Below are positions 8,142-54,632 of a DNA stretch of 64,000 nt, piece by piece. The stretch comes from a virus (taxonomy: Duplodnaviria; Caudoviricetes). Every line of letters begins with the position of its first letter. Position 1 is the first letter of the stretch. The stretch is from IMG/VR virus record IMGVR_UViG_3300028809_000013, positions 332-64,331 of that record; one strand, written 5' to 3'. The notes under the pieces were generated by a model. The model made no database searches. It was not told the DNA's origin and worked only from the letters and a program-made list of their open reading frames with translations. Both the position numbers and the translations under genes were made by a program.

Positions 8142-8196
8142 CTAATCCGGCAACGCGGCGGCGGCACCGCGGAACCAATCTGAGTGGGCTAGAACG

Positions 8197-10696: not shown

Positions 10697-10768
10697 AGCC
10701 CTTCAGTGGTTGCCGAGCCGGGGCCGTGAAGACCCGTGCACGGGCGGGTTCGATTCCCGCAGGGGCTA
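10697..10768 (+). ncRNA. tRNA-like RNA (non-canonical)
   Basis: 7-bp acceptor stem AGCCCTT/AGGGGCT, perfect T-arm GCGGG-TTCGATT-CCCGC, tRNA-like length; D and anticodon arms poor; no encoded CCA. Confidence 0.55.
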
Positions 10769-13700
10769 TCCGCAAGACTCGATGATCTCACGGATGCGGG
10801 CGCCGTGGACCGCTTCCTGAAACTCCAGCCCGCGAGCCTTCAGGGCCGCCGCCGCGCGCTCTCGCCACACCACCGGGTCCATCGTCTGGTTCGCCAGAAT
10901 CTTCAGCGCGTTGAGGTTGCGGCCGGCGTCGGAGCGCTCACGGATGAAGCGGGACAGCAGCAGCGTGTTCTGCGCCTCAGCCTGTTCGATCCCCTGCCGG
11001 AGCAACTGCCGCTCCAACGACGCCTCCGCCGTCTCCAGACCGTCCATCTGCGCCAGCCGCAGCGAGGACCGTTCGATCCCCTCCACGTTCTCGCGCACCT
11101 GATTCCGCACGGCCAGCAGTTCCGCCGCCGTCAGGCCGCGGGTTGACTTGGCGAGCGCGGACACGTCCGTGGGCTGCATCCCCAGCTCGCGCGCCACCTG
11201 CTTCGTCTCCTCCCACGTAACACGCTGCTTGGGGTCCAGTCCTTCCGCCTCCACGATGCGGCGCACGTGGTCCGCCAACCGCCGCTCCCCGGTCGGGTCC
11301 AGCCCGAAGGAAGACAGGTTGGCGTAGCGGCCGGCGTCCAGCACCGGGTTGGCACGGGAAGGTAGGGGATCAAATCCCTCCAGCTCCAGCCCGCCAATGA
11401 GCCGCGAGTACACCCGCTCCACGCCGGGGGTGGCATCGTCGGCAGCGGCCTCCAGTTCATCAATGATGCGACGGCGTACATGCTCGTTCCCGGCCCGGTA
11501 GGCGTCGGTGATGGCGGACTGCTCCGGCGCGGTGAGCGTGCGTGTCACGCGCTGGCGTACGGGCTTCAACGGCCCCTCCGCCAGCAGCGCCACGTCCCGG
11601 TCCGCGATCTGCTGCGGCGTCAGGGTGCGGCGGGCGGCACGCTCTCCCACCTCGCCACGCATGGCGGCGGCCACGTCGGGCACCAGCCGTTCGTAGCGCT
11701 TGGCCAGTTGCTCCAGTTGTCCATCCGTGAACTGCGACAGCGCCACCCGCGCAGTGCCGCGGCGGATTGCGTTGCGCATCTTGCGGCCAGACGTGCGCAG
11801 ATAGCCCACTCTCACCCCCAGCGCACCGGCAGACCCCGCCAGCGCCCCGTAGAGGGGATGATCCGGCTCCATCGCCAACCCCAGCCCCGCACCGGCCGCC
11901 GCCTGCCCGGCCTGCGTCTTCAGCGCATCCAGGATGGGGCCGGGGAAGCTGTAGAGCGCCTGCCCCTGACGTTGCACCGTCTCCCGGAGCGCGGGAGTGA
12001 TGCGGATGGACAGGTTAGTGCCGCCTGCCCCCTCGTCCAGAACGCGCTGCACGGGGTTAGAGCCCAGCAGGTATTCCATCTCCGTGCGAAACCCGTCAGA
12101 CCCCGTTTCCATTAGGTGCACAAGTGCGTGCGCGCGCTGTTGCGGGTTGGCGGTGGCGTTCATCACGTGCAGGATGTCCGCGCGATAGTAGGGCTCCGCT
12201 CGCTCCGCCATATCGCGCATGACGTTATCGGTCAACTCCGGACCCACCCACTCCGTCCGGTACATCTCGTTTTCCATCCCCGGCAGACGGATGGGTTCCA
12301 CCTCCACGCCGAGCTTCTTCCCGTACTTGGCGAGCCAGCGAGGGATGATCTTGTCGTAGAACTCACGCATCCCCTCCAGATTCTTCGGGTCGTTGGACAC
12401 CACCTTCCAAATCTGGTCGCCGGTGCTCCACGCTACACGGTCGTAGCCACCTTCCACCGCCTCATCTACGGCGCGCTTCAGGGTGAGGCCCAGCCACTCG
12501 TCCGTGTTCTTGAACGGGGCGTTGGGGACACCTCGCGTCTCGACTTCACGAATGGCGGCGCTTTCCGCCGCCTCACGAGTCCAATAAGCGGAAATCTCAC
12601 TACCGTCTGGAGCCAATACTGACCATTGGCTCCCGTTCTGTTCAACCTTGTAGGGTTGGTTTGTATAGCCATGCTCCCGCCCCGTCTGATGCCAGTCGCT
12701 CTGTGCCTCCTGCATGAAAAGCACACGCTCACCATCGGGCAGGGTGCGATCGTCCAAGCGGATGTGGGCCATCGTGTTGGGCTCATCCCAATGCGGACCG
12801 CGATAGATAGAGTTGCCCCGCTCCGCGTTGAACTTGTCCAGTGCCTCCCGTAGTGCCGCCTCGCGATTCTGGTTCGCACTCAGGCGACGACCGTTGGCGT
12901 CACGCACGGACCACAGGCTACCATCCTGCTCCATTCGCCAGTCGTCGGGGGCGGAGCGCAGGCGGTCGTTGTCCAGCGTCAGCAGCACTTCGCGGTACGT
13001 CCCCGGCTCACCTCCGGCGACTTGGTAGCCCGCGTAGCGGCCCTTGGTAGCTTCCTGCGCTTCTCGTAGAACTTCGTCGTGCCGCTGGATTACCGACTCT
13101 GCGCCTTTGAACTCATCCATCAATCGGTATATCGCGCTGCGCTCCTGGACAGGCACGTCGCGAAAGTGCGCGCTGGCGTCGATGGCAGCGCTACCCCATT
13201 GCCGGATTTCGCTGATGGCGCTGGCTTCCGCCCACGGCTCGATGGAGGTAGCACGCAATGCGGCAAGCAACTGCTGCTCGATCCCCTTGCTCGCCTCCAC
13301 CGCTACCGAATAGGAGTCATGCAGTTCTTTCAGGCGAGCCCTATTCCCTCGCGTTGCGCCGTAGCCTACCTCGCCCACCCGTACGCGGTTCTGCGCAAGA
13401 TACTGCCCCAACTCCGCGCGCGTGACCTTTTGGTTGCCGCGCTCGCGGAGCCATGCGTCTACGCCGGTCCACTCGCGCTCCCCCTTCGCGATGCCGGCCG
13501 GATGGCCATCCAGGTAGCGGAGCCACTGCGAGGCGGGCGCGGCGTTCTGGCCGCTCCGCACCGCGTTCTCCAGCCGCGAGTAAAAGCGTGGGGCGCCAGC
13601 ACTGGTGCGCAGGGTGGAGATGTCCCCCACGGCACCGATCCGGTTGCCGGCGTGCCGTGCCACGCTGCGTGCAATCGCAGGCCCCGCCGCTCCCACGCCA

Positions 13701-16700
13701 GCGCCGATTGCAGCGCCACGCAGGGGGTCTTCGCGGTCGATGGCCGCCCCTGCCAGCGCCCCGGCTCCGGTGCGAGCTACAGCGCCGAGCAGGCGAGGGT
13801 CGGCGGCGCCTGCGATATCGGGATTGCGGGGATCGAAATTCCCACTGTTGCCAATAGCAGATTTGATCTGTTCCGGATGGAGGGGGATATAAACATCTCC
13901 TTCATCACCGGTGTTGCGGATAACTACACCATCGTAGTTCCCGCTCCTAATGGCATCCCGGAAAGGTTTGCCCTCTGGCCCAAATTGGTATTCGCCCGCG
14001 TAATTGCCCTTGGCATCGATGACGTACGGCTTTTGGATGGACAGGTACACAGGATACACTGAAGGGCCATGTCCTCCCCTTGAATTCACACCCTGCGCAA
14101 ATTGGTTGGCTACATCCTTCGAGGAGGAAAAGAAGCCGGCGATATCTACGTCGGGCTCATCCCCATTGTATGCAGGGAACCCCCCGAATTCGCGGCGATT
14201 GATAGAAGACATGGGCTCTTGACGCTGATCCGGCGGCCACATCCCCTTATAAACCACCAACGGTTCTCCGCTATCGTCCACAATCTTGCTGTTGCCGAAC
14301 CATCGGTTGAACTGAGGCGTACGCGTTTGTGGCTCGCCCTGACTGGGCGCGGAGGCGTTGCGCGACGTTTCAAAATCACCCGCGGCGCCGGTCGAGGCGG
14401 TGGACGCCGGGTGAATAAACTCCGCAGGGATTTCCCCTTCGACGTACGGATATCCCTCTGCATTCACTCCGCCGAAAAGCCCGCTGTTTTCGGGAATCTC
14501 CACGCGCAGCAGTTGTCCGCCGTACTCCTTCTGGAAGTCGGCGGCCTCTGGGAGATTGTCGTGTAGTGCGATGCGGGTTCCGTCCTCATACCCTCCATCC
14601 GCGAAGTCGAAATCCCACTTCCATTCGGGCTCAACCCCCTGTTCGCGCAACCTGAAGAACGACTTCAGAGGGTCACCAGCTCGGTACCCCTCCGGGGCTA
14701 CGTGATAGTAAACGCCCGGATTCTCGGTCGGGTCGGAGCCTCGACGCTTCCCCGTCCAGATGGGGACGGGGGGCTCCTGCCCCTCCAGCCGAGACAAGTC
14801 GCCCACCGCCCCGTACTGGTTCTGAAGCGGGCGCACAGCGACACGGCCGGCGTCCATCAGTGCCTCGGTATCCGGCAGGCGCAGCGGGTCCACCTGCCGA
14901 TCCGGCCCCAGCGCCAGCGGGAACCCGGTGCGGTTGCGCTGCGTGGTCGCCGGAGTCGCTGTCGCCATCTCGTCCGGATTCGTACGGACGAATCCGGCTT
15001 CGGTACGTGGGCGGCTTCGCAGGTCCTCCGCCAGCTCCATCCCGGCACGCCTGCGCGCGGCAAAATTCGCGTCCGCGTTGATGGCACCGCGCATGGACGC
15101 GGCACCGAGGCCAGCCCCGGCCAGCGCCCCCAGCGCCGCGCCGCGAGCAGGATTCTCCGGGTCTAGCGTTCCACCTGCCGCGCCGCCGACAACCGCCCCA
15201 GTTCCGGTGCGGGCGACGAGGTTCAACAGGTCAGGCGTGGCGGCGCCGGTGATGTTCGGATTGCTGGGGTCGAACGCGCCACTGTTACCGGTGGCGGATT
15301 TGATTTGCGTAGGATGGAAGGCGATAAACGAATTTGCAAATCCTTCGGCTTCATTTTTGTAGATTATGCCATCGTAGCCGTGTCGCTCCAGCAGATCGCG
15401 GACGGGTCGCGACCATTCATAGTGAGCCCTTCGTTGAAGAACCTGATCGTCATCCTGTTCCAGATTTTTGCGCAGTCGCTTCCCGAGTATGTCAATTTGC
15501 CTTTGCGCTTCAACGACTTCGGCGGTTGGTAGTTTTGCGCGTACCTGAGCTGTGCCAAGTACACGCGATGGCGTCCATACTCCCATATCCGGCATCTGCA
15601 GGGGATTGCGAATGCTGAGGAATACGGGCATTTCTTTGCCCATCATTTCAGCAGCAGCAGCGTCTCCAAAGTGAAACCCAAACTCTCCTGCTTCAAAAGT
15701 GTCAAAATCCTCTACGGTGCCATGATACACCACCAGCGGCTGTCCCTGCTTGTCTCGCACCTTGCTGTCCCCGAACCAGCGCCGAAATTCCGGCGTGTCC
15801 GTCTGCGCCAGCCTGTCGATGCCTGCGCGGTCGCCTACTGCCCCTACCCGGTTGCCCAGCAAGCGCTGGGCGGGAGACACGGCGTCCGGCATCGCGGAGA
15901 TGACGGAGCCGTCTTCCATGCGCACGCGCACGCGGCCGAAGGTGTTGCCTGCCACGGTGCCGCTTACGGGGCCACCCTCCGTCTGCACTACCACGGGCTT
16001 GCCCACGTAGTTGCTTGCTTCCCGGCGGGCCTCGGCCGCGCGCTCCCGGTCGGTAAGTTGCCCGGTTTCGCGACGACGTTCGGCGGCGCGCTGCATCCCC
16101 AGCGCCTTCAGACGCTTGTCGGCATCCTCACGGGAGAGCGTGCCAGCGCGCACCTGACCGTTGATCGACGCACGGCGGGCGCGGTACGCGTCCTCTGCCG
16201 CTTGGTCGATCTGCCCGGCAGGCGCGGGTGCCACGTCGGGGACGGGTGCCGCTGCGGTTGTGGCGGGCGATTCGCTCCGCGCTACTGGTGCCACGTCAGG
16301 CGCGACGGGGGCGCTTTCCGGAAGCGCACGCACCCACGCGTCGAGATCGACTTCATTACCGGCGTTGGATAGAGACGCCGCGCTTTCTTCGGGCTCTGGC
16401 AAGCCGCGCGCTTTCCTCCATGCACGGTATTGAAGCTCTGCCACACCGCCCGGCTCATATGCCGGTGAATTTCTGTAACTTTGCCACTGCTCTTCCATCC
16501 GTGCACGCCTCGCTGCCTCAAAGCGAGCGCCATACAGCGGGTCTACCTCACGTATCGCGTCCGCCTCGCCCTTGCGACTACCGGAAAGGGACGCGGCTTC
16601 GGCCCTGGATAGCCAGCGGCCAGATGTCGAGGTAAACCCCGCCTCAATGCCCAAGGATGGATCGGGCATTCCTCCTGCGTGTTCATAGGCATCAATCACC

Positions 16701-18013
16701 GATTCATCAACTCCATCATCCAGCATCGCATTAAGGGCCATCCCATGATTCTCGCCTTCGTATACCTTGCCGCCATAACGGATACTGGCGGCACGCACCC
16801 GCTCTCCGCTGCCCGCCGGCGCACGACGCCTCGCCGCGTCTGTCTCCAGTTGACGCAGCCACGTAGGCACCACCTCAGCGCCTTCCTGCGGCCTGTCGAT
16901 GTTCAGATCGGGCGCAAGAAGCCCGCTTTCCCGGCCGGGGCGCGGGCGCACGATCTCGTCCATCCGGTCCGCCGCTACGTCCGCCGTGCCCTCTCCGCGC
17001 CGGACACGCCGCGACGACGGACGGACGAAGAGCTCTTCCGATGCAGTCATGCGGCCACCGCCGGGGCGCAGCAAGCCACCCGCGACACCGCCGGCCAGCG
17101 CGCCGATGGCGAGGTTGGCGCCGCGGCTCTCTCCGTCCTCGTAGTCGTACGCCAGATCGTACGGCAGGCCCTCCGCCACGCCGCGGGCCACGTCCCCTAG
17201 CCGAGTACGTGCGCCGGTGGTCCCGAAGCTCTCCAGCGCCGCACGCATGGCCGTGCCCTCCGGGGCGATCCGCGCGCTGCGGGCCAGCAGGGCGTTTTGC
17301 GCGCCGATGGGCACGGAGGCGCCGAGGATGGCCCCTGCGATACCGGAGGCGCGATCCCCACCCGTTGCAGCCTCCCGGCGGAGCGTTTCGCGTTCACGGA
17401 AATCCTCCGCCGTGGAAACCGGAGACAGCGCCCCCAGCAATTCGTCGCGATACCCCAGCGTGAGCGTCTGCGCGCCGCCAGCCCCGGCGTAGTCCAGCGC
17501 CCGGACCACGGCAGGGCGCTCCTGGAGACGGCGCCGCTCGCGGCTGCGCTCCTCGTCCAGCGCCCGCTGCGTGCGGTTGCGGGTGTCCGGGCCGATGGTC
17601 CCCGTGCGGGAGGGATCGGGGCGGCCCGGAACGCGGGATGGGCGGCGACTCTGCGGCGTACTGGCGGCGTCGGCGGCTACAGGCTGCGCCGTCTCGGACG
17701 CGTCCCGTAGCGCGGCGTAAGGATCGAAGTAGCGGCGCGGAAAGTTGGCAGGAGGAGCCTGCACGCCCGCGGCGCGGAGGGCGGCGCCCTGACGCATGAG
17801 CGGGCTGGAGCCAACGTCCGTGCCGGCGGGCAGGTCTTGGGCCGGTTCCGGCGTGAACGTGTCCTGTAGCCACTGGCGTACGCCGCGCCGCCGCCTGCGC
17901 CTGCGGGGAGGCGTAGTGGCGGTGTCAGGTTGCGGCTGGTTGGCGCCGGCCCGCTCTGCGTCGGCCCGCAGCGAGTCCAGCCAGCCAGTTACCTCGTCCT
18001 CACGCTTCGACAT
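10766..18013 (-). CDS. Giant polyvalent virion/ejection protein with two ADP-ribosyltransferase-like domains
   Basis: 2415 aa; two copies of TP.F.RWFG.SK..D..G.PLVVY(H/K)G...PV.LSI..P...YDG....N...HP.QIKSA.GNSG.FDP.NP.I; also FYSRLE and HW....AHIR..DR...LFMQEAQSDWHQ modules. Confidence 0.8.
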   Translation of the reverse strand: MSKREDEVTGWLDSLRADAERAGANQPQPDTATTPPRRRRRRRGVRQWLQDTFTPEPAQDLPAGTDVGSSPLMRQGAALRAAGVQAPPANFPRRYFDPYAALRDASETAQPVAADAASTPQSRRPSRVPGRPDPSRTGTIGPDTRNRTQRALDEERSRERRRLQERPAVVRALDYAGAGGAQTLTLGYRDELLGALSPVSTAEDFRERETLRREAATGGDRASGIAGAILGASVPIGAQNALLARSARIAPEGTAMRAALESFGTTGARTRLGDVARGVAEGLPYDLAYDYEDGESRGANLAIGALAGGVAGGLLRPGGGRMTASEELFVRPSSRRVRRGEGTADVAADRMDEIVRPRPGRESGLLAPDLNIDRPQEGAEVVPTWLRQLETDAARRRAPAGSGERVRAASIRYGGKVYEGENHGMALNAMLDDGVDESVIDAYEHAGGMPDPSLGIEAGFTSTSGRWLSRAEAASLSGSRKGEADAIREVDPLYGARFEAARRARMEEQWQSYRNSPAYEPGGVAELQYRAWRKARGLPEPEESAASLSNAGNEVDLDAWVRALPESAPVAPDVAPVARSESPATTAAAPVPDVAPAPAGQIDQAAEDAYRARRASINGQVRAGTLSREDADKRLKALGMQRAAERRRETGQLTDRERAAEARREASNYVGKPVVVQTEGGPVSGTVAGNTFGRVRVRMEDGSVISAMPDAVSPAQRLLGNRVGAVGDRAGIDRLAQTDTPEFRRWFGDSKVRDKQGQPLVVYHGTVEDFDTFEAGEFGFHFGDAAAAEMMGKEMPVFLSIRNPLQMPDMGVWTPSRVLGTAQVRAKLPTAEVVEAQRQIDILGKRLRKNLEQDDDQVLQRRAHYEWSRPVRDLLERHGYDGIIYKNEAEGFANSFIAFHPTQIKSATGNSGAFDPSNPNITGAATPDLLNLVARTGTGAVVGGAAGGTLDPENPARGAALGALAGAGLGAASMRGAINADANFAARRRAGMELAEDLRSRPRTEAGFVRTNPDEMATATPATTQRNRTGFPLALGPDRQVDPLRLPDTEALMDAGRVAVRPLQNQYGAVGDLSRLEGQEPPVPIWTGKRRGSDPTENPGVYYHVAPEGYRAGDPLKSFFRLREQGVEPEWKWDFDFADGGYEDGTRIALHDNLPEAADFQKEYGGQLLRVEIPENSGLFGGVNAEGYPYVEGEIPAEFIHPASTASTGAAGDFETSRNASAPSQGEPQTRTPQFNRWFGNSKIVDDSGEPLVVYKGMWPPDQRQEPMSSINRREFGGFPAYNGDEPDVDIAGFFSSSKDVANQFAQGVNSRGGHGPSVYPVYLSIQKPYVIDAKGNYAGEYQFGPEGKPFRDAIRSGNYDGVVIRNTGDEGDVYIPLHPEQIKSAIGNSGNFDPRNPDIAGAADPRLLGAVARTGAGALAGAAIDREDPLRGAAIGAGVGAAGPAIARSVARHAGNRIGAVGDISTLRTSAGAPRFYSRLENAVRSGQNAAPASQWLRYLDGHPAGIAKGEREWTGVDAWLRERGNQKVTRAELGQYLAQNRVRVGEVGYGATRGNRARLKELHDSYSVAVEASKGIEQQLLAALRATSIEPWAEASAISEIRQWGSAAIDASAHFRDVPVQERSAIYRLMDEFKGAESVIQRHDEVLREAQEATKGRYAGYQVAGGEPGTYREVLLTLDNDRLRSAPDDWRMEQDGSLWSVRDANGRRLSANQNREAALREALDKFNAERGNSIYRGPHWDEPNTMAHIRLDDRTLPDGERVLFMQEAQSDWHQTGREHGYTNQPYKVEQNGSQWSVLAPDGSEISAYWTREAAESAAIREVETRGVPNAPFKNTDEWLGLTLKRAVDEAVEGGYDRVAWSTGDQIWKVVSNDPKNLEGMREFYDKIIPRWLAKYGKKLGVEVEPIRLPGMENEMYRTEWVGPELTDNVMRDMAERAEPYYRADILHVMNATANPQQRAHALVHLMETGSDGFRTEMEYLLGSNPVQRVLDEGAGGTNLSIRITPALRETVQRQGQALYSFPGPILDALKTQAGQAAAGAGLGLAMEPDHPLYGALAGSAGALGVRVGYLRTSGRKMRNAIRRGTARVALSQFTDGQLEQLAKRYERLVPDVAAAMRGEVGERAARRTLTPQQIADRDVALLAEGPLKPVRQRVTRTLTAPEQSAITDAYRAGNEHVRRRIIDELEAAADDATPGVERVYSRLIGGLELEGFDPLPSRANPVLDAGRYANLSSFGLDPTGERRLADHVRRIVEAEGLDPKQRVTWEETKQVARELGMQPTDVSALAKSTRGLTAAELLAVRNQVRENVEGIERSSLRLAQMDGLETAEASLERQLLRQGIEQAEAQNTLLLSRFIRERSDAGRNLNALKILANQTMDPVVWRERAAAALKARGLEFQEAVHGARIREIIESCG

Positions 18014-35438: not shown

Positions 35439-36707
35439 TTACGTACGGGTGATCCCCTCGATCACCGCGTGGTTGGCCGGCGCACGCGTCACCATCTCCA
35501 CATGCTCGCACCAGTCGGCCGTGAAGGCGTGCACCCGCCCCTCGCCGGTCGTGACACGGTGCAGGATGTTGCCGTCGTCGTCAATCCAGCCGGAGGTGCC
35601 CATCTGGCGGAAGAAGACATCGTCCATCCGCAGCCAGTACATGCGCTGCGGGGGGCAGTCCTTGTCCTTCACCAGCGGCTTGCCGCCGTACTCGATGGCG
35701 TCCTGCCCCGACTTCAGCTCCATCGGGTTCACCTGCCGGCGCTCGCTCACGAGGTTGTTGACGTGCGTGTCGTGCACGTTCGTGTTCGAGAACGCGACCA
35801 GCCCGCTCTGGTCCGTGGCCTTGCGGAACAGCGCCGAGTTGGTGGCCCGCATCGCCCTCTCCAGCAGGATCGGGTCGCTGTTGTACGGCGCCGCGGTGTA
35901 GTCCACCACCGTGGACTGGAGCACCGCCCGGCCGGTGCGCGACAGGTTGAAGTAGTTGCCCGTGTCCGTGACGAAGCCGGAGACGCCGGTCAGCTCGTTC
36001 CCGTCGTTGCGGTTGGTCGAAGAAGAACCGAGCTGGATCTCCTCGCCGTCCGTGAGCGTGACCGCCGTGTTGACGGTGATGGTGCCGGCGCTTTCGTCCA
36101 CGGCGGTGATGGTGCGGGAGACGGCAGCCGTGGCGAACCACACCTCCATGTTCTCCTTCAGACACATCACCTTCTCCCAGCCCTCCAGGTCCGCCTGCAC
36201 GTAGGTAAGCCCGTAGGGGTCGGAGACGGGGACCGTCGTGGAGGCCGTCACCGCGCCGTCCACCGTGGCGAGGATGGCGTTGCCATCGCCCCAGCTCTGC
36301 CGCTGCTTGGAGAGCCGGTAGCCCTCCTTGGTGTCGTCCAACGCCTGCGACAGCGCGGCCTTGAAGGTGGCCCGGCTCCCCTTGGTGGCGGCGATGGACT
36401 GGCCGGTGATGTAGAACGAGCCGTAGAGGCTCTTCACGTAGCCGGTGATGCGGTCATACCGGCCGAAGCCGGGGTTGGGGAGGGCTCCGTTCTCCGCCCG
36501 CGCTCCGTGACCCTGCGCAGTGGCGGTCTTCAGCGGCTCCACCCAGTTCAGGCCCACATCGGTGGGCTTGGTCTTGATCCGCGACAGCAGCTCCGTGCTC
36601 GTGTTGACGAGGTTGCGGATCTCGTTGACGACGTAGTCCTCCTTCAGGAAGGCGGCGATGGTGCTTGCCGCACCCGCGTCGTCATAGATTACCTGGCGTC
36701 CTGCCAT
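35439..36707 (-). CDS. Major capsid protein
   Basis: 422 aa after the scaffold; LKE.Y...I..LVN, E.G.LP.PG, G.PLV.D.DCP and P.NHAVI.GI patterns of HK97-fold MCPs. Confidence 0.85.
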   Translation of the reverse strand: MAGRQVIYDDAGAASTIAAFLKEDYVVNEIRNLVNTSTELLSRIKTKPTDVGLNWVEPLKTATAQGHGARAENGALPNPGFGRYDRITGYVKSLYGSFYITGQSIAATKGSRATFKAALSQALDDTKEGYRLSKQRQSWGDGNAILATVDGAVTASTTVPVSDPYGLTYVQADLEGWEKVMCLKENMEVWFATAAVSRTITAVDESAGTITVNTAVTLTDGEEIQLGSSSTNRNDGNELTGVSGFVTDTGNYFNLSRTGRAVLQSTVVDYTAAPYNSDPILLERAMRATNSALFRKATDQSGLVAFSNTNVHDTHVNNLVSERRQVNPMELKSGQDAIEYGGKPLVKDKDCPPQRMYWLRMDDVFFRQMGTSGWIDDDGNILHRVTTGEGRVHAFTADWCEHVEMVTRAPANHAVIEGITRT

Positions 36708-36775
36708 GGGCGTGTGACTCCTGCTCTGGTTCGTTTGCGTTCAGGCGTCCCCGGCAGGATGCCAAGGCGCCGCAT

Positions 36776-37909
36776 TCAGTCTCCGAAGAAACGATCGACC
36801 ATGCTGTCGATCACGTCATTCTCGCGCTTCGGGCGCACCCACTCTGCCTTGCGCCCGCCCGGAGCCGCGGTGTTGGGCGGTGTGGTGCGGCGGGCTCCGG
36901 CCATCTTCGCCGTCCTGCGCACCCGTTCCTGCTGGGCCCTGCGGTCCGCCGCCTGCTGGGCCTTGGCGGCGTCCCTGCGCTCCCCGGCCAGCCGCTTGGC
37001 CACCTTGGCGGCATGCGCCCGCACGTCGGCCGCGACCACCTTCGTCCCGGCAGCCGCGGCCCTGCGAAGGAAGTTGTCCACCGAGTCCTGCACGATCTCG
37101 ATGGACTCCGCCTTGCGCACGCCCAGCTTGCCCGCCTCGTCCTGCACCAGCCTGCGCACTGTCTCCGCAACCCGCTGCTCGGATACCCGCTGCTGCGTGG
37201 CCCGCGTCTGCCCCTCACGATGGTTCTGCATGGCGATGGAGCGTTCGCCGTCGAACACCCGGCGCGCCCGCGGATCGTCGGAAAGCTCCTGCACCCGGTC
37301 CAAGGCGGCGGCCAGCAGCTCCGGGTTGCGCAGACCGAGATCCACCAACACTGTTTCGGTGAACAGCTCCGGCTTGGCGTCGGCCACCGTCAGAAGGAAG
37401 TGCTCTCCTCCCGCGGGCGTGGCGAGGTCGGCCATGAACTGCTCGTACTCGGTCTGGAAGGCGCGGGCAGTGGACACCTCGCGCTCCGCCGACTTGCGCA
37501 GTTCCGCCACCTCCTGCGTCTTGCGGGTATAGTCCCGCACCAGACTCTTGTACGCCTTCTCCGCCACCGCCCGCGCCTTGGGGTCGGTGATGGCGTCGAT
37601 TTCCTTGCGGTCGAAGGGGTCGTCCTCCTCATGGCTCGCGTCGTCGCGGTCGCCTTCGGACTCCTCGCTCTCGTCCGCCTCCTCACCCAGCGCGCCGTCG
37701 TCCCCGGTGCCGTCGTCTGCGTCGGACTCCAGATCGCCCAGGCCGTCGCCCGGCGCCTCCAGGTCGTCCGTGTCGCCTTCCACGGTCAGGTCCGCGTCGT
37801 CGTTCAGGATGATGCCCGTCTCGTCGCCCACCGTGTCCGCTTCCTCGGTGCCGCCGAAATGACGGTCGAAGATGTCGTCGGGGATGGACGTGCCCTGCAT
37901 GTCGCTCAT
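36776..37909 (-). CDS. Capsid scaffolding protein
   Basis: Very acidic N-terminus, DYTRKTQE.AE.RK motif, position before the MCP. Confidence 0.8.
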   Translation of the reverse strand: MSDMQGTSIPDDIFDRHFGGTEEADTVGDETGIILNDDADLTVEGDTDDLEAPGDGLGDLESDADDGTGDDGALGEEADESEESEGDRDDASHEEDDPFDRKEIDAITDPKARAVAEKAYKSLVRDYTRKTQEVAELRKSAEREVSTARAFQTEYEQFMADLATPAGGEHFLLTVADAKPELFTETVLVDLGLRNPELLAAALDRVQELSDDPRARRVFDGERSIAMQNHREGQTRATQQRVSEQRVAETVRRLVQDEAGKLGVRKAESIEIVQDSVDNFLRRAAAAGTKVVAADVRAHAAKVAKRLAGERRDAAKAQQAADRRAQQERVRRTAKMAGARRTTPPNTAAPGGRKAEWVRPKRENDVIDSMVDRFFGD

Positions 37910-38030
37910 CTGTGGTGCCTCTGTGCCGGATGATTGTGCCGCAGGGACCAGAGGTGGACCGTGCTGCGGGAACGGGGTGGAAACTGGTGACTGTGGATGC
38001 CTCGTGGGTGAGGATGTACGACAAACTGTT

Positions 38031-38078
38031 TTTGGTCGATACCCTTGCCCTTGACTTACGGCATAGAGGGATTAGATT
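38031..38078 (+). promoter_or_regulatory. TTTGGTCGATA motif plus promoter of array B
   Basis: Motif at 38031-38041; TTGACT(38051)-N16-TAGATT ending 8 nt before the first repeat. Confidence 0.65.
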
Positions 38079-38086
38079 GAGCCACT

Positions 38087-38421
38087 GTCGAGCCGAAAGT
38101 GGAAAGACAACCGAATCATCTGAGCGAGTCAGTGGAGTGGAAGTAACCCGTAGCCAAAGAGCGAGCCGTGAAACGTTAGACACCCGGACTGGAACAGCGA
38201 GCCGTAGGGATTGAGCCACCCGAAGCAACGCAGCGAGTTGAGTAACGGTAGTCACCCGAGTGCACAACAAGCCGTTTGGTAGTGAGACGCCCGAAGGGAG
38301 GAAGCGAGCCTGACGCGATTGAAGTAACCCGAAAGGGTGTAGCAAGCCGTAGCAATCGATTCAACCGCCTGCCGCCAGCGAGCCGAAGCAGTTGAGATCA
38401 CCGGAAACATCCAGCGCCTTT
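38087..38421 (+). repeat. TIGR-like guide-RNA array B (9 units)
   Basis: Example unit AGCGAGCCG-tgaaacgtt-AGACACCCG-gactggaac; spacers 7-11 nt, mostly 9; followed by hairpin 38426-38460. Confidence 0.9.
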
Positions 38422-38430
38422 CTATGGCCG

Positions 38431-38730
38431 TCAGGGACATGTACCCGCGCCCTGACGGCCGGATTCCTGGTCGTCGCGGGCACGCTGGGCGCAAAGCCAC
38501 TGGATCTGCTGTTCCATGTCGGAGAAACGGGCCTCATAGTTCCGGTCCAGCGTGTTCTGCGCATCGAAGGCACGTTCCATATCGGTGCGCAGGCGTTGGG
38601 TGTCGGCCTCGTTCTCGTTGGTGCGATACTCGGTGCGTGCCACCGCCACGAACACACCCATGGCTGGTAGGATGAAGGCGAGCACCCATCGAGGGATGCG
38701 CAGGTCGTTGTTGCTATCGGATTCAGCCAT
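38431..38730 (-). CDS. Membrane-anchored coiled-coil protein (holin/spanin-like)
   Basis: One TM helix, coiled coil, two C-terminal Cys; same architecture as 27137-27550. Confidence 0.6.
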   Translation of the reverse strand: MAESDSNNDLRIPRWVLAFILPAMGVFVAVARTEYRTNENEADTQRLRTDMERAFDAQNTLDRNYEARFSDMEQQIQWLCAQRARDDQESGRQGAGTCP

Positions 38731-38764
38731 GGCCCCGGATCAACCTTCACCGAAGTGTGCCACC

Positions 38765-39115
38765 ATGCCCAAGGTCGTGATCGACGGAGTACAGTACATC
38801 CCCATGCCCGCGCCGCTGGAAGATGCCGACGAACTCATGCGTGCGCTGGAGGTGCGGTTCGACAGTGACGCTGGCGACAATCTCACGGTCCGCGAGTACC
38901 TGCGCATCCTACTGGACACGCTGTGGGTCGAGGAGGAGGGCTTCAGCGGAAAGCGTCCTTTCGGCAACAGTGGATGGAAGTATGAGTTGTACGAACCCTT
39001 GGTCCGGGACGGCTTCCTCCCTGGCGAAGTGGAAGACGGTAGGCATTTCCCGGATAGCTACGAAGACGCAGACCAATACGTCCGCCTGTTGATTCAGGCG
39101 ATGACGCGTCCGTAA
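38765..39115 (+). CDS. Conserved phage hypothetical protein
   Basis: TVREYL..LL.TLW.E.EGFSGKRPFGNSGW motif; stop overlaps the first repeat of array C. Confidence 0.7.
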   Translation: MPKVVIDGVQYIPMPAPLEDADELMRALEVRFDSDAGDNLTVREYLRILLDTLWVEEEGFSGKRPFGNSGWKYELYEPLVRDGFLPGEVEDGRHFPDSYEDADQYVRLLIQAMTRP

Positions 39116-39560
39116 GCCGAAGTATAGGAGCCACCCGTCGTATCGAAGCGAGTCAAAATTTCAGAGACGCCCGTATTGCAGGAACGAGTCTAACGGACAA
39201 AGCCACCCGTACGGGAAGAACGAGCCGCAACGAACGAGTAACCCTTTGGATAAAGAGCGAGCCAGCGTTTTTGAGACACCCGTCATCGACTAGCAAGCCG
39301 TGGTTCACGATACACCCGACGCTACTAGAGCGAGCCGTGCGAGCTGTGAGTAACCCGTGGCAGACTAGCGAGCCGTAGAATGTGAGATAACCGCGCCGCT
39401 TCAAAGCGAGCCGTACATCTTGAATCACCCTGTCTGACCAAAGCGAGCCGTGTCCGGGGAAGCCACCCTTCTGCCCTTGAACGAGCCGGAACTCGCAAGT
39501 CACCCATCCAGCCAGAACGAGCCGTCGAACCCGATACACCCTGCTCCTTGGAGCGCCGCA
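39111..39560 (+). repeat. TIGR-like guide-RNA array C (12 units)
   Basis: Example unit AACGAGCCG-gaactcgca-AGTCACCCA-tccagccag; 24 unique spacers of 9-11 nt. Confidence 0.9.
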
Positions 39561-39562
39561 GC

Positions 39563-39599
39563 AACCAGCCCCGCCTGTACGGTACAGGCGGGGCTGGTT
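39563..39599. terminator. 18-bp perfect inverted repeat closing array C
   Basis: AACCAGCCCCGCCTGTAC-G-GTACAGGCGGGGCTGGTT between the array and the portal stop. Confidence 0.7.
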
Positions 39600-39605
39600 C
39601 TCTCT

Positions 39606-41903
39606 TCAGTTCAACAGCCCGCCTCCCGCAGCATCTTCAAGGCCCTGCTCCATCATGTCCGCCTCTGCCCCCAGCGGGTCCATTGCGGCCCCCATGCCAC
39701 CCATCGGCCCCGCTGCCGGCTCCCCGCCCTCCTGCGGCATCCCACCGGGCGCACCTCCGGCCAGCAACATGGCGTCCTGGACGCGCTGCTGGTCGATGGC
39801 GGCCTTCACCGCAAGGAAGCGTTGCTGCAACACCATCTGCGCTTCTTCCGGCCACTCCTTCCACTCGGCGCCGGCCAGCGTACGGCGATGCTGGCGGTAG
39901 TGCACGGCTAGGTTCTGCCACGGCTGCGGCATGACCAGCTCCGTGGAGTCGTCCATCCCGTCCATGCCACCGAGCAGGCTGATTTGCTCCTCGATCCGCA
40001 TGGCCTCCGCCACGTCGCCGTCTTCCGACTCGTACGCCGCCTCCAGCCCGCCGAGCTGGAGCGCACGGGCAAAGCGGGCCGGGTCGGGACGTCCCGTCTC
40101 CGGGTCGTTGAACAGGACGGGGAAGCGCTGCGCCAGATCCATGATGACCGCCTGCCGTGCAACCTCGCTTCCCGGACGGCTGCTCCCCGCCTGCGGGATG
40201 ACGTCCACCGCGCCCTCCAGGTCGGAGGCGCGGAAGCTCTGCACCATGTAGCGGCGATCCGGCCCCGCGGCGTAGTACAGACGCTCGTCCGTGTAGTTGT
40301 TCTTGATGAGGATGAGCCACGCACCGGCAAGGTCCGCCACCGCCTCCTCCGCGGAGGCAAGGAACGGCCCCAGGTCCGCGTCGTCGGCCTCCTGCAGCTG
40401 CATGATGGCGATGCCGGCCGTCACCCCGCCCGTGGTCCCGCCCTGCGACACCGCCCGCATCCCCGTCACCCGCTCGAAGTCTACCAGGAGCCGTTCCCGT
40501 TCCTGGTACACGGACGCGGGGAGCGCGGGCACCGGCATGGGCTCCGGCTTGTACGGGTAGGTGTACCGCACCACCTCGCCCGGCTCCGTGGTGAAGGTGC
40601 CCTTTTTGACCCCCGCCTGATTGGGCACGGCGTACTTGCCGTTTGCGAACAGCCGGTGGTGCTCCGCGATGCGGGCGGACAGTTCGTTGTACTCCCGGTT
40701 GATCGCGACCGCCGCCTCCAGCTTGCTCATGCCGTGGTAGCGGCCGGGCACGATGATGTCCTGCGTGTGGATCAGGCGGAACAGCCCGTCCGGGAGGTCT
40801 TGTGGCTCCTCCAGCAGCACGTCGCCCACGCTCACCCAATGCCGCCCCTCCGGATAGTCGGCGCACTGCCTCTCGTAGTAGAACTTCACCAGCGCCCGCG
40901 GCAGGCTCTTCTGCCGCTCGTCCCGCGGCGAGACGCCGAACTCGCTGCCGTCGCTCAGACGCCCGTCCAGCATGCCGCTGAGGGTGGAGAGAATCCCCAT
41001 GACCGTGGACAGGTCTTCCGCCTGCACCTTGGCCGCCGCCTCCGGCCAGCGCTTCGCGATCTCGCGCAGGCTCATGGGCTCCGTGACGATGAACCACGTC
41101 ACGTCCTCGTCGCAGGTAGCTTCCGGGTTGACGCGCACCTGAAACGGAGAGTAGACGCGAAAGTCCACCTCGCCCTCCTCCACCACGTGCGCCTTGGCCC
41201 CCGGCCGTGGGCGCCCATCCTCGCCCAGCATGGGTTCGCCCTCCGCGTCGTAGGGCACCGTCAGGATCTCGGTGGCCGGGACCAGCATCCCCGGCTCGTC
41301 CTCGCTCTCCACCAGCAGTGGCGTGACCCCGTCCGCCTCGTAGACCGGGCACTCCATCTCCGCCTCCAGCCGCTTGATGCGGCCGGCACGGGGGTTCCAG
41401 AAGGGAAGCGCGTAACCGTTGCCCGTGAGGATCGTCCAGCCGCAGAAATGACGGTAGCGCCGGGCCGCCTTCAGCTCCGTCCACTTGGCTTCGATCAGGT
41501 CATCCCCGAGCTGCGCCGCCTTCATGTCCTTGGGGTCGGACGACGCCGGCACGACCTGCGTGGCCGGGCGGGTCTTGGTGACCTTGGCCAGATACGTGTT
41601 GTAGAAGGGGAGGCAGAGATTGTAGGTGGGCTTCAGCTTCCAGAGCGGGTCGGTGCGGTCCACGCGAAAGCCGTCCCGTCCCAGCCGGTGCCAGTGCTGC
41701 CCCACCAGGAAAAGCAGATTCTGCTGCCACGCGAGGTGGAGCGGGCGGAGGTACTGCGTCTGCTCGTCCCACAGCGCGGTCAGGTATGCGGCGTAGGAGC
41801 GGCGGGCGTTGTCGTTCCAGCCCGCGGTGCCGGGCAGCACGGTGGGGTACGGAGCCGGGCCGTGGTCGCCTACGGGCGTGGTGAGGTCGTTGTGCTCGTG
41901 CAA
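39606..41903 (-). CDS. Portal protein
   Basis: 765 aa; W..N..F..G.HW, SPF...V.P.A, TAG.AI..LQEAD patterns of P22-like portals; lies between TerL and scaffold. Confidence 0.85.
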   Translation of the reverse strand: MHEHNDLTTPVGDHGPAPYPTVLPGTAGWNDNARRSYAAYLTALWDEQTQYLRPLHLAWQQNLLFLVGQHWHRLGRDGFRVDRTDPLWKLKPTYNLCLPFYNTYLAKVTKTRPATQVVPASSDPKDMKAAQLGDDLIEAKWTELKAARRYRHFCGWTILTGNGYALPFWNPRAGRIKRLEAEMECPVYEADGVTPLLVESEDEPGMLVPATEILTVPYDAEGEPMLGEDGRPRPGAKAHVVEEGEVDFRVYSPFQVRVNPEATCDEDVTWFIVTEPMSLREIAKRWPEAAAKVQAEDLSTVMGILSTLSGMLDGRLSDGSEFGVSPRDERQKSLPRALVKFYYERQCADYPEGRHWVSVGDVLLEEPQDLPDGLFRLIHTQDIIVPGRYHGMSKLEAAVAINREYNELSARIAEHHRLFANGKYAVPNQAGVKKGTFTTEPGEVVRYTYPYKPEPMPVPALPASVYQERERLLVDFERVTGMRAVSQGGTTGGVTAGIAIMQLQEADDADLGPFLASAEEAVADLAGAWLILIKNNYTDERLYYAAGPDRRYMVQSFRASDLEGAVDVIPQAGSSRPGSEVARQAVIMDLAQRFPVLFNDPETGRPDPARFARALQLGGLEAAYESEDGDVAEAMRIEEQISLLGGMDGMDDSTELVMPQPWQNLAVHYRQHRRTLAGAEWKEWPEEAQMVLQQRFLAVKAAIDQQRVQDAMLLAGGAPGGMPQEGGEPAAGPMGGMGAAMDPLGAEADMMEQGLEDAAGGGLLN

Positions 41904-42036
41904 GGAAGGACGCTCTCCGGGTGGACGGCGCCGCGGGCTGGCGGTCGCCTCGCTACCCGGAGAGCGTAGTGTGTGTGTTGATTTTGGGGTAGATCTGAGC
42001 CCTCGCCTGCCAGTGAAAGAGTGGAGGGGGCGGGGG

Positions 42037-45860: not shown

Positions 45861-45935
45861 CTCGTCGCCTGCCCCGTGCTGTGGGTTGGTTGATCTCACT
45901 ACAACCAATCTATATTCTCACGCATCCGAAGTCAA
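45858..45935 (-). promoter_or_regulatory. Repeated promoter-leader cassette, copy 3
   Basis: TTGACT-N17-TAGATT; 29 nt identical to copy 1. Confidence 0.75.
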
Positions 45936-48715
45936 GAGCCTTCTTCAACTCGCTCCGCGAGTCGCTCCCGGTGCTCCCTGACCCGACGTTCCCGCGCCGT
46001 CTCGCCTCGCCTCTCCTGCGTCACTAGCTCCGGCGGCGCGACGCGGGCGAGGGTCGCATAGCGCTCGCCGTCCAGCATGTGCATACCTCCAGCCGTGTTC
46101 TTGTCCGGCCCCGGTGTGTGCGCTTCGTAGGGTTTGGGCTTCTTCCAGCGCAGGTTCTTCATCTCCCACAGCAGGCGCGAACCAGCCATGAATTCACCCT
46201 CGTCGCTGGCGTCCGCCCCCGGTCGCAGATGCACCCATTCGCTGTACAGGTTGTCAAAGATGTACCAGCGCGGCTCGCCCACGGCGCTGGGCGAGCCGCG
46301 CTCCACCGTCAGCGGCGGCTCCCGCTTGGTGCTGGGGGCCAGCAGGTTTTGCAGCATGCGAATGCCGGCGTCCACCGCCTTCAACTTCTGGTCGAGCTGC
46401 GTAAAGACGAGCCGGGCGCCGATCTCTGCCGCGGCAGCGTTCAACTCGATGCTGTCCTGTAGCGCAGCGGTGTCGATGTAAATGGTGAGCGTGGCGTCCC
46501 GGTCCTCATTCAACCACGGCAGCACGGGTGGATAGAACCGGCTCCGGGTCTTGCCCTCCTCGTCGGTGCTCTCCACCGTACGGCCCCTGGTGAGATCGCG
46601 CCACACCGCGGACACCCGCTGCTCCGCCGTCTCCCCGCTGCCGCTGAAATACTCGTACACCGTGTACACGCGCCCCGTCTCGTCCATCGCCTTGATGACA
46701 AGGGCGAAGAAGTACGCCGAGTCGCAACCGCCCCACACCTCATAGTGTTGCGGCACCTTGAAGGCGGGGATGACGTGCACCGCCGGGTCGAAATCCGCAT
46801 ACACGCCCCCGGTGCGGCGCTTGTAGATGCCGAAGACGCGTACCATCCGCTCCGCCGGGTCTTTGTAGCGGCGGGCGAAGCGGAGTACCTTCTCGCGGTC
46901 CATGTGGGGCACTTTGATGCGACCCACCCCCATGCTGGCGCGATCCCGCTTCTCCAACGCTTCGTCGTACTCCGCGAGCCCGCCTTCGATCACGTACACG
47001 TCCGGGTTGTCCCCGCCCTTGTTGCCCGCCGGCAGGTACAATCCCTCCTCCATCCAGCCCAGCCCGTTGACCGGGGTGACGGTGATGTAAATCTGCCCGC
47101 CCGTGGTCGCCACGCGCGCCGCGGCCTCGTTGAAGTGCTCCTCCGGCACCGGCTCGTCCAGATGGATGTGCCCCACCGCGTCACCCGTCCAGCTCGTTGC
47201 GGCCTGCTCGTACGACACGAACCAGATCCGGCAGACGCCACCGTCCACCCGCCGGATCGTGGCGCACTTGTGCTGCTCGCTCCAGTGCACCAGCAGGCGA
47301 TGCGGGACGAGGGAGAGAAAAATCTTCCGCGTCACCTTCTCGTAGAAAGGGAAATCCGGGAAACCGGACCACAGCGTCTCGATGAGCGGCACCCGCTTGT
47401 ACGGGTGCACACCGTGGGCTCGCCAGATGTTGTCAATATGTGCGATTGTCGTGTTGTGGGTAACAATGCAGTTCTCCACAACATAGGTACGCTCCGGGTG
47501 CGCCACCTCTATGCAGACCTGCTCGGTTTCTCCGGCGGGATCGATGCGAACCAAGATGCGTTCTTTGGTAACGCAAGGGTTTCTCTGGCGCGCCAACTTG
47601 CGGGAAAGCCTGAATAAAGGCACGTCGTGGACGCGTATGTTGACGCGGTACGACTCCCGTCCCAGCCGTTTTTCTCCTTTGTACGTGTACGATGTTCTGC
47701 GTACTCCCATAACCGCAGTACCACCCAACGACTGAGCCAGGAAAACAACCGCATCAGCCAGACACTTTGATGTAGAACTAAACTCAATCTGCCCATTCTT
47801 TAGCGCCGATCCATCCGTGTCCATCAGTCCTTGCAAGAGCGCAAGTCGCTGAGGGGCGTCGTTGTACAAATAGCAGTCGGGGACGTGTTTCTCCCATGAC
47901 CGCTTGCCCATCAACCCCAGCCCCCGCAGGGACGCAGTCAACGGGTTTGAACGAACGAAGTCCCCCTTCGCGTTGCGCGCATACGGGGCCGGTATACTCC
48001 AGTCGCAGTTTGTTCCTTTGACTTTTTGCAAACTGACGCCATCAGGAAGCAACCTGCGCACCTCTTCCAACAATTCATCATCAACGCTGGAAAGCCTAAC
48101 CGCATCTTTGCTGATCCCACCGTCGCCCAACAGCACGCCCATCAGATACGGGTCTACCGGCACGTCGCAAGCGGGCAAGCGCACAGCCCCTACGGCGGGT
48201 ATGCTGAACCTCTGAGGCGGCTTGGGCCGCATGCCGCCGGGGCTACTCAGAATGTCACGCAGCGAGTACACACCCCATTGCATGTAGCGCCGACCAAAGC
48301 TCTGCTTGCCAGTGGCGTTCGGGTTGGCTTTGACAAAGCGAGCCTGCGGGTCTTTGGCCTTCCACAAATGGTCCAAGCCGCAACGGGTAGAGGCGCCATC
48401 GTTGAAAGTAAGCCGGTACACCGGCTTCACACCTTGGGGATAGACCCCTACCACAGGAGTAGGCGTGCCATCTCCAGCTATCACCAAGTCACCCACGCAC
48501 AACTCTCCCATCTCACGCCATCCGCTCGGCGTGAGTACGGGAGTGTCTACCGGCATCTCCTTCCCGTACCGATTTGAGGCGATATTCAGGACAACGGGGT
48601 AGTCCGCAATGCAGTATTCTTCCTGTCCCTCGTGGGGGGTAAACGGAAACTCGGCGGGACGCAGCAAATCCCGCCGAGGAGCCCACGGAGATACCAGATC
48701 GTCAATCGCGCTCAC
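45932..48715 (-). CDS. terL: Terminase large subunit, intein-containing
   Basis: Walker A ASNRYGK/TT split by the intein; Walker B IHLDEP; TVTP..G; nuclease motifs GGCD and H.LD..RY. Confidence 0.9.
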   Translation of the reverse strand: MSAIDDLVSPWAPRRDLLRPAEFPFTPHEGQEEYCIADYPVVLNIASNRYGKEMPVDTPVLTPSGWREMGELCVGDLVIAGDGTPTPVVGVYPQGVKPVYRLTFNDGASTRCGLDHLWKAKDPQARFVKANPNATGKQSFGRRYMQWGVYSLRDILSSPGGMRPKPPQRFSIPAVGAVRLPACDVPVDPYLMGVLLGDGGISKDAVRLSSVDDELLEEVRRLLPDGVSLQKVKGTNCDWSIPAPYARNAKGDFVRSNPLTASLRGLGLMGKRSWEKHVPDCYLYNDAPQRLALLQGLMDTDGSALKNGQIEFSSTSKCLADAVVFLAQSLGGTAVMGVRRTSYTYKGEKRLGRESYRVNIRVHDVPLFRLSRKLARQRNPCVTKERILVRIDPAGETEQVCIEVAHPERTYVVENCIVTHNTTIAHIDNIWRAHGVHPYKRVPLIETLWSGFPDFPFYEKVTRKIFLSLVPHRLLVHWSEQHKCATIRRVDGGVCRIWFVSYEQAATSWTGDAVGHIHLDEPVPEEHFNEAAARVATTGGQIYITVTPVNGLGWMEEGLYLPAGNKGGDNPDVYVIEGGLAEYDEALEKRDRASMGVGRIKVPHMDREKVLRFARRYKDPAERMVRVFGIYKRRTGGVYADFDPAVHVIPAFKVPQHYEVWGGCDSAYFFALVIKAMDETGRVYTVYEYFSGSGETAEQRVSAVWRDLTRGRTVESTDEEGKTRSRFYPPVLPWLNEDRDATLTIYIDTAALQDSIELNAAAAEIGARLVFTQLDQKLKAVDAGIRMLQNLLAPSTKREPPLTVERGSPSAVGEPRWYIFDNLYSEWVHLRPGADASDEGEFMAGSRLLWEMKNLRWKKPKPYEAHTPGPDKNTAGGMHMLDGERYATLARVAPPELVTQERRGETARERRVREHRERLAERVEEGS
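47453..48559 (-). mobile_element. Intein with LAGLIDADG homing endonuclease (369 aa, class-3-like)
   Basis: Block A EMPVDTPVLTPSGW, block B DHLW, motifs YLMGVLLGDG and LLQGLMDTDG, block F VCIEV, block G IVTHN|T; visibly lower GC. Confidence 0.9.
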
Positions 48716-54395: not shown

Positions 54396-54625
54396 GGTTA
54401 CGTTCAAGACGTACGGGTGACTCTACACTCTACCGGCTCGTTCCAAATTCGTCCGGGTTACTCGTCTGCTACGACTCGTTCTTTTGGTCCGGGTTACTCC
54501 GCGCGGCCCGACTCGCTCTTAGCATACGGGTTGCTCTAGTACGGCGGCTCGCTCACACACTTCGGGTGACTATTCAGTTACGACTCGTTCCCGAATTCCG
54601 GGTTACTTGTGCCAAACGGCTCGCT
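54396..54625 (-). repeat. TIGR-like guide-RNA array D (6 units), directly downstream of the tas-like gene
   Basis: Minus strand reads AGCGAGCCG-tttggcaca-AGTAACCCG-gaattcggg-AACGAGTCG-taactgaat-AGTCACCCG-aagtgtgtg...; 7 nt gap after the stop codon. Confidence 0.9.
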
Positions 54626-54632
54626 GTGTGTC

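Follow-up and report, generated by a model that had tools for sequence, protein, structure and literature searches.

Array C and the small gene before it

The DNA analysed here, called the window throughout, is a stretch of 64,000 nucleotides (nt) from a soil phage (Duplodnaviria; Caudoviricetes), namely bases 332-64331 of the 64,331-base virus record IMGVR_UViG_3300028809_000013; "genome" below means this record. Our subject is array C, the largest of four TIGR (tandem interspaced guide RNA) arrays in this genome, whose first repeat overlaps the stop codon of a small gene, P0002. A sequence-only reading of the window had described gene and array as fused and had raised a possible link between the gene family and such arrays. 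The features at the locus are as follows.

38431-38730, minus strand: P0241, 99 residues, a single hydrophobic segment near the N-terminus; the gene lies between arrays B and C
38731-38764: short intergenic stretch that separates the divergent genes P0241 and P0002, candidate leader/promoter of array C
38765-39115, plus strand: P0002, 116 residues, phrog_15618 (1.4e-22), a family of unknown function
39110-39557, plus strand: TIGR array C, 12 dual-repeat units (36-38 nt each) and 24 spacers, all different
39563-39599, plus strand: perfect 18-bp hairpin, arms 39563-39580 and 39582-39599, 100% complementary
39606-41903, minus strand: portal gene (Pfam P22_portal, 2.2e-14), convergent with array C

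Reading of the sequence together with chain parsing placed the units of array C at 39110, 39146, 39182, 39218, 39255 and 39291 and, further on, at 39328, 39366, 39404, 39441, 39479 and 39515, head-to-tail, each in the order 9-nt edge repeat, spacer A, 9-nt loop repeat, spacer B. The earlier description of C as a TIGR array, the largest with 12 units, was thereby borne out, as was its count of 24 different spacers (24 of 24 are distinct). The overlap of the first repeat with the TAA of P0002 also proved real (39113-39115), but the repeat concerned, 39110-39118, is degenerate, and just its AGCC (39115-39118) fits the part of the edge repeat expected as the mature 5' end. At its other end the array closes with a truncated edge repeat, GAGCG at 39551-39555, and then CC to 39557; array B ends in CAGCG plus CC (38412-38418), which matches the shared AGCGCC terminus seen before. 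The hairpin that follows array C, with a predicted fold of -39.3 kcal/mol (z -6.2), lies 6 nt from the portal stop codon (39606-39608), much as the sequence-only reading had placed it. That reading was also right that arrays B and C flank a minus-strand, putative membrane-protein gene, P0241, whose single hydrophobic stretch was judged by eye and which matched no PHROG family.

Four dual-repeat arrays in one genome

The other arrays and the only effector gene lie as follows.

8196-8456, plus strand: TIGR array A, 7 units, downstream hairpin z -7.4
38086-38418, plus strand: TIGR array B, 9 units, promoter-like site 38051-38078 upstream, hairpin at about 38426-38460, z -3.6
54401-54626, minus strand: TIGR array D, 6 units, beginning 7 nt past the tas stop codon
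54633-55913, minus strand: tas (P0001), 426 residues, coiled coil plus Nop domain at about residues 127-426

The total of 34 units in four arrays (7 + 9 + 12 + 6) with a single effector, claimed from the sequence by eye, was upheld, exactly one Tas match being present in the record, and no spacer is repeated genome-wide (68 of 68 distinct). Alignment of all 34 units gave the repeat consensus GAGCGAGCC(G)-spacer-GAGnCACCC(G)-spacer. A dual-repeat TIGR array has been described as one of alternating 8-12-nt repeats with ~9-nt spacers and ~36-nt units (PMC12045711). Here both the edge and the loop repeats are 9 nt long, within that 8-12-nt range for two alternating repeats, and spacers are 9 nt in 24 of 34 cases for A and 27 of 34 for B, the remainder being 7, 10 or 11 nt. 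All four arrays are closed by a 5-nt truncated edge repeat and strong hairpins follow A, B and C; truncated terminal repeats and a hairpin after the array fit the description in the discovery paper (PMC12045711). In such arrays conserved box C and box D bases are expected around each spacer. Here spacers are preceded by CC and then mostly G (27 of 34 for A and for B) and followed by an AG-containing motif, and the conserved repeat may reach 1-2 bases into the counted spacer. The second spacer base is T in 15 of 34.

The clustering of these units is well outside what chance would give. The pattern CGAGCC-N9-16-ACCC occurs 20 times in the window against a shuffle mean of 3.27 (largest 9; 0 of 100 shuffles reached 20), and 16 of the 20 matches fall in four clusters. 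A model built from the 34 units gave 32 matches in the window (E at most 5), all within the four arrays and including 12 of 12 units of array C; since the model was trained on those same units, the informative part of this result is the absence of any other match in 64 kb. Tandem Repeats Finder reported no array here, and with a lag-autocorrelation detector the arrays did not stand out from background; k-mer chains and the sequence model were used instead.

A nuclease-free Tas protein with two added domains

The Tas protein is the only one of its family in the record: all 27 Tas-family tblastn queries (E at most 0.01) matched the 55-56 kb bins alone. In phmmer searches of PDB its residues 203-418 matched TasR (chain 9mty_A, E 1.3e-17) and, at E 2.3e-06, chains of TasH. 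An AlphaFold model with a predicted local distance difference test score (pLDDT) of 81.8, of low confidence in the N-terminal 125 residues, was matched by Foldseek to TasH (9w04) and TasR (9mty) at probability 1.00, with TM-scores by target of 0.57-0.73, followed by the IS621 recombinase (E ~4e-3) and, more weakly, Nop5. Pfam found no HNH or RuvC domain in the protein, only RNA_pol_A_CTD, Transposase_20 and HHH_5, and a very divergent nuclease domain is conceivable just in the poorly modelled N-terminal 125 residues. Y404 (conservation of at least 90% among 27 sequences) and a GH motif at 410-411 can be aligned with TasH in its C-terminal region, the part for which a Tyr/His processing dyad has been reported (10.64898/2026.09.09.750476).

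Two parts of the protein go beyond this common plan. An RNA-polymerase alpha-subunit C-terminal domain (alpha-CTD)-like helix-hairpin-helix lies at residues 40-84 (Pfam E 4.1e-06, above the curated cut-off), within an N-terminal extension of about 125 residues that is present in 5 of 120 listed homologues, the others being about 300-340 residues long. An insert of about 50 beta-rich residues (266-316), absent from TaTasR, carries a zinc-ribbon Cys-Cys-His-Cys cluster (C269, C272, H288, C297) that is invariant across the whole Tas clade. Judged by sequence and structure model, the protein is thus a TasA-type Tas with two additions, an alpha-CTD-like domain and a zinc-ribbon insert. TasA-type proteins repressed transcription in reporter assays (10.64898/2026.09.09.750476).

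Among one-genome-per-species bacteria and archaea, 55 of 65 hits of this Tas clade were Gemmatimonadota; because of this and of the 66% G+C of the phage, the host phylum is likely Gemmatimonadota. The k-mer chain test found no arrays at the Gemmatimonadota Tas loci, and the unit model picked up single units in just two, L100 and L095; around most of the 65 hits (L095-L159) no multi-unit array was detected within 10 kb. In L100, from a Longimicrobiales metagenome-assembled genome (MAG), a lone TIGR unit stands directly after the tas homologue (10737-10815), followed by a hairpin. This unit is bounded by AGCC and GAGCG, half edge repeats at both ends, which fits the cut site proposed below. A Hadarchaeum MAG (L155, 1148-1480) holds a nine-unit array with near-identical edge and loop repeats beside a Tas homologue of 27% identity.

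In the window only array D adjoins tas, and 15 kb separate tas from array C. Promoter-like sites precede tas (55969-55940), array B and the plus-strand genes upstream of array A. Arrays B and C stand on the strand opposite to the surrounding portal, scaffold and capsid genes, so late transcription would cross both in antisense.

The joint between P0002 and array C is a rearrangement scar

A Tas query against viral contigs and a portal query against metagenome contigs returned the same two relatives only: a 64.9-kb genome (G001), collinear with that of the window at 88% identity over 52.3 kb aligned, and a 37.5-kb fragment (G002) that is ~99% identical to G001. A search of the GenBank phage collection with window 36700-42000 gave no match. 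Both relatives keep arrays B and C, the membrane-protein gene and tas, and both are without P0002. Their homology to the window ends at 38769, five bases into the gene, and restarts at 39117; between these points they hold 101 other bases, made up of two TIGR units and part of a third that is most of the edge repeat of the window's first unit. A contig from an independent soil run has the same gene-less joint.

Possible traces of the gene are present in the relatives. After a 1-base gap, their 101 bases open with six bases that equal the Lys-Val codons of P0002, and the 8-mer before their first full repeat matches the last codons and stop of P0002 at 7 of 8 positions, remnants that are short, a random 8-mer matching the gene with at most one mismatch 12% of the time. 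They are suggestive by position only, since they stand at the very points expected to remain after a deletion within the gene. From these alignments the likeliest history would be an ancestor in which a longer array began a few bases beyond the gene, with the gene deleted in one lineage and two units in that of the window; alternatively, the gene was inserted, replacing two units. Under either history the overlap at the stop codon is a rearrangement scar, because the relatives lack the gene, carry two extra units at that place, and the homologues of the gene show no TIGR link.

The homologues were surveyed at two scales. P0002 belongs to a large phage family (670 homologues at E at most 0.01; 19 invariant columns across 29 sequences), with no Pfam family, no PDB sequence match below E 0.8 and, for a structure model of pLDDT 88.5, 0 PDB fold matches at E at most 0.001; the protein atlas gave nothing usable. 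The suggested co-occurrence of its homologues with TIGR arrays was contradicted: the unit model (E at most 5) found a TIGR-like unit within ~6 kb in 0 of 80 viral loci, while recovering the arrays of both relatives as a control (41 matches). Within the same distance tblastn found a Tas gene in 0 of 80, and the window's portal, scaffold, capsid and membrane genes were in 0 of 80 of these loci. Because tas sits 15 kb away in the window itself, whole virus records with the closest P0002 homologues were also searched, and Tas was found in 0 of 10 (positive control, 3 of 3 records). With 0 of 80 loci, 0 of 10 records and the gene absent from both close relatives, a meaningful link between gene and array found no support.

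The region before the gene has changed very little. Over 43 alignment columns, 38731-38764 and the first five gene bases differ from the relatives by one substitution and one insertion or deletion, while the neighbouring gene is 81% identical. Since this region and the start codon survive in the relatives although the gene is gone, we take this to mean that array C is probably driven from 38731-38764 and that P0002 would be dispensable cargo in its leader.

The arrays change by whole units without a preferred end

The arrays of the window and of the 64.9-kb relative could be aligned unit by unit, a unit being counted as shared when at least 70% of spacer positions agree.

Array A: 7 of 7 units shared
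Array B: 5 of 9 shared, one pair out of order and doubtful, leaving 4 collinear; the relative has 6 units
Array C: 8 of 12 units shared
Array D: 3 of 6 shared, one pair doubtful; the relative has 3 units

Identity within shared units is 90% in the spacers (387 of 431 positions) and 92% in the repeats (379 of 414), near that of the flanking blocks (81-98%), which puts point change at about the genomic rate. In array C the exact 36-nt unit C3 is present in the window only, unit C8 has been replaced in place, the last two units and the hairpin correspond to one other unit and another hairpin in the relative, and at the 5' end the gene stands against two units of the relatives. In array B the two outermost units are kept and the interior varies, and of array D the last unit alone is kept. 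The two relatives agree with each other at 111 of 111 spacer positions in B and 225 of 225 in C, and share only the last unit in D. In the 37.5-kb fragment (L081, 10406-10864) an extra open reading frame (ORF) of 152 codons lies between tas and array D, with its stop inside the first unit; the near-identical 64.9-kb relative lacks this ORF and has a different, three-unit array D.

The comparison with relatives that the sequence-only reading had proposed therefore came out divided: gain and loss of units were seen, as whole-unit events, and polarity was not, no end being preferred. Spacers that were invariant across relatives would have spoken against a variable guide repertoire; they are partly stable (7 of 7 units shared in A, 8 of 12 in C) and partly lost, gained or replaced. 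Because no array end changes preferentially, the alignments argue for change by recombination and deletion, not by CRISPR-like leader addition.

The spacers are poor in G+C and match no site in the phage

With the mostly-G first base omitted, spacer G+C is 46.8% against 65.6% for the genome, and sets of random genome 8-mers never fell below 59.9% in 2000 draws. The guides are thus no sample of this genome. No pair of spacers in this genome shares 7 or more bases in either orientation; in a count of shared spacer words, 11 pairs of at least 7 bases compared with 9.9 in shuffles, with no sign of tiling or reuse.

Targets were sought in the phage, its two relatives and 145 other loci (1.7 Mb), the scan being limited to these and including no spacer-pattern search of host genomes or public collections. 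The assumed geometry, spacer A and then spacer B in reverse complement, was deduced from the 3' overhangs reported for TIGR targets, the strand geometry itself not being stated in words in the text of those reports; the mirror geometry (reverse complement of A followed by B) and four control geometries were scanned alongside, with gaps of 0-2. In the phage and its relatives the best match in a real geometry had 3 mismatches in 16-19 positions, against 2-3 in the controls. In the 1.7 Mb, sites with 0, 1, 2 and 3 mismatches numbered 0, 0, 14 and 161 for A followed by the reverse complement of B and 0, 0, 14 and 136 for the mirror geometry; the four controls gave 0, 0-1, 9-18 and 151-234. The obvious candidates for targets would be AT-rich stretches of host DNA or of other mobile elements.

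Interpretation and rival explanations

Array C is very probably a dual-repeat TIGR array of working type, and the largest of the four from which one phage-encoded, nuclease-free TasA-type Tas takes its guide RNAs. Array anatomy, the identity of Tas, the placement of gene and array and the differences between relatives were read directly here; the steps that follow are carried over from published work on other TIGR systems. Plus-strand transcription would start from the conserved stretch upstream of 38765, with P0002 in the 5' part of the precursor, and would end at the 18-bp hairpin. Tas dimers would bind each unit and cut within the edge repeat, after GAGCG and before AGCC, which would yield TIGR guide RNAs (tigRNAs) of ~36-38 nt. 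The two spacers would then pair at adjoining sites, A on one DNA strand and B on the opposite one, and the nuclease-free complex might block transcription or replication of a target that lies in the host or on a competing mobile element.

Several observations weigh against this assignment. No sigma-70 consensus was found in 38731-38764, and array C could possibly be transcribed by read-through from the array B promoter. No RNA runs holding the stretch were listed. The hairpin at 39563-39599 is terminator-like, but the stretch downstream is pyrimidine-rich with no clean T run, and the consensus terminator scan listed neither this hairpin nor any after A or B, the term "terminator" resting here on the hairpins themselves. 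Only 18 of 34 units are 36 nt long, the other 16 being 34, 37 or 38 nt, while published dual-repeat guides are described as uniformly 36 nt. The 15-kb gap between tas and array C exceeds the 5-kb span of the original array definition, the discovery search having covered 5 kb either side of tas (PMC12045711). Nowhere in the target scan did the real geometries do better than the controls. The shortness of the gene remnants weighs in the same direction for the history of the joint.

The position of P0002 suggests another explanation, in which it assists the TIGR system as an accessory factor, say in array expression, processing or the gain of spacers, and is functionally fused to the array. It physically abuts array C, its 19 invariant columns mark it as well conserved, its confidently modelled fold has no PDB match, and an ORF in the 37.5-kb relative likewise ends within the first unit of array D. 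Neither TIGR-like units nor Tas genes accompany its homologues, however, whether nearby or in whole records, those loci share none of the window's portal, scaffold, capsid or membrane genes, and P0002 is missing from both close relatives although arrays B and C and tas are present there, which makes this role very unlikely. A CRISPR-like adaptive memory, growing by addition of units at the leader end, would agree with 68 spacers that all differ, with unit content that varies between relatives, and with an array D almost wholly different in two phages ~99% identical elsewhere. We consider it improbable, since the differences in array C lie at the 5' end, in the interior and at the 3' end alike, with no polarity, B varies inside, D keeps only the last unit, A is shared in full, and shared spacers change about as fast as repeats. 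Published TIGR work, in the texts cited here, knows no adaptation genes, and none were searched for in this phage.

The guides might instead regulate the phage's own genes, such as the late operon, through sites in its own genome: B and C run antisense within the head-gene block, between the portal and scaffold genes, and repression of transcription is possible for TasA proteins (10.64898/2026.09.09.750476). The best self matches are no better than those of the control geometries, and the G+C of the spacers lies far below anything drawn from this genome, so that self-regulation seems highly unlikely. To the notion that the repeats act as DNA, as protein-binding iterons or as packaging or replication signals that encode no guide RNAs, we give next to no credence. 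The lack of a listed RNA run and the empty target searches would suit it, but the units follow the TIGR plan closely, down to the truncated terminal repeats and the hairpins, the genome also encodes a Tas protein, and these repeats are likewise found beside Tas genes of unrelated archaea and bacteria.

Relation to known systems

Taken by itself, array C is an ordinary representative of a kind of array that was described recently, and its fusion to P0002 is incidental. With the dual-repeat TIGR arrays and TasA proteins of Faure et al. 2025 (PMC12045711) and Xu et al. (10.64898/2026.09.09.750476) it shares ~9-nt edge and loop repeats, ~36-nt units, truncated edge repeats, a hairpin, a nuclease-free Nop-domain Tas and carriage by a phage. 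It differs from the systems described there in that 28 of 34 units, in three separate arrays, lie more than 14 kb from tas, in the 16 units of other lengths, and in the Tas protein, with its N-terminal alpha-CTD-like domain (in 5 of the 120 homologues listed) and zinc-ribbon insert. The distal arrays and the two added protein parts are the unusual features; a word search confined to the main texts of the two papers found no mention of a helix-hairpin, of zinc, or of orphan or multiple arrays.

Among other systems, the TasR and TasH nucleases (9mty; 9w04 and related) share the coiled coil, the Nop fold and the conserved C-terminal Tyr and Gly-His region, whereas the phage Tas is without RuvC or HNH, so DNA binding without cutting is expected. 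Box C/D sRNA-Nop5 and the IS110/IS621 bridge-RNA recombinases show a distant kinship in the fold of the RNA-binding domain and a guide with two variable segments; here there is no fibrillarin-recruiting or DEDD recombinase domain, and the guides stand in long tandem arrays. CRISPR arrays likewise consist of tandem short repeats with unique spacers, then a terminator, and can be carried on a mobile element. A CRISPR array was considered for this locus and ruled out: it has two alternating 9-nt repeats with ~9-nt spacers, not one direct repeat of ~25-36 nt, and no leader-end polarity.

Taken together, these features allow a tentative joint reading, which we regard as possible and no stronger: distal guides (28 of 34; one array with a promoter-like site, two antisense in the head-gene block) would serve a Tas that touches the transcription machinery, with arrays that change without polarity and AT-rich targets, in promoters or foreign DNA, in a probable Gemmatimonadota host. 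If true, an alpha-CTD-like TasA could be an RNA-guided regulator that contacts the transcription machinery besides blocking DNA.

The published TIGR-Tas work, in the texts cited, leaves open the natural targets and how arrays gain and lose spacers. On the first, the search is narrowed by the absence of a self or relative match, by AT-rich spacers and by a clade whose hits are mostly Gemmatimonadota MAGs (55 of 65). On the second, alignable arrays in three related genomes let unit-level events be read directly and give a first natural view of TIGR array change, by unit-exact loss or gain, replacement of a unit or of a whole array, and point change. The distance of these arrays from tas means that surveys near the gene alone undercount guides. 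The stop-codon fusion, for its part, is ordinary, a scar beside an unrelated cargo gene.

Other features of the record

CheckV rated the record 79% complete. Its ends (genome 1 and 64331) are homologous with both ends of the 64.9-kb relative, and these shared end positions suggest, from alignment, true genome ends in both, despite completeness values of 79% and 66%. Elsewhere on the minus strand, window 10766-18013 is one open reading frame of 2415 codons. The 927-residue product of 45932-48715 (minus strand) has terminase large-subunit family matches in its N-terminal part and its C-terminal half, and the N-terminal part also matches primase and helicase-loader families.

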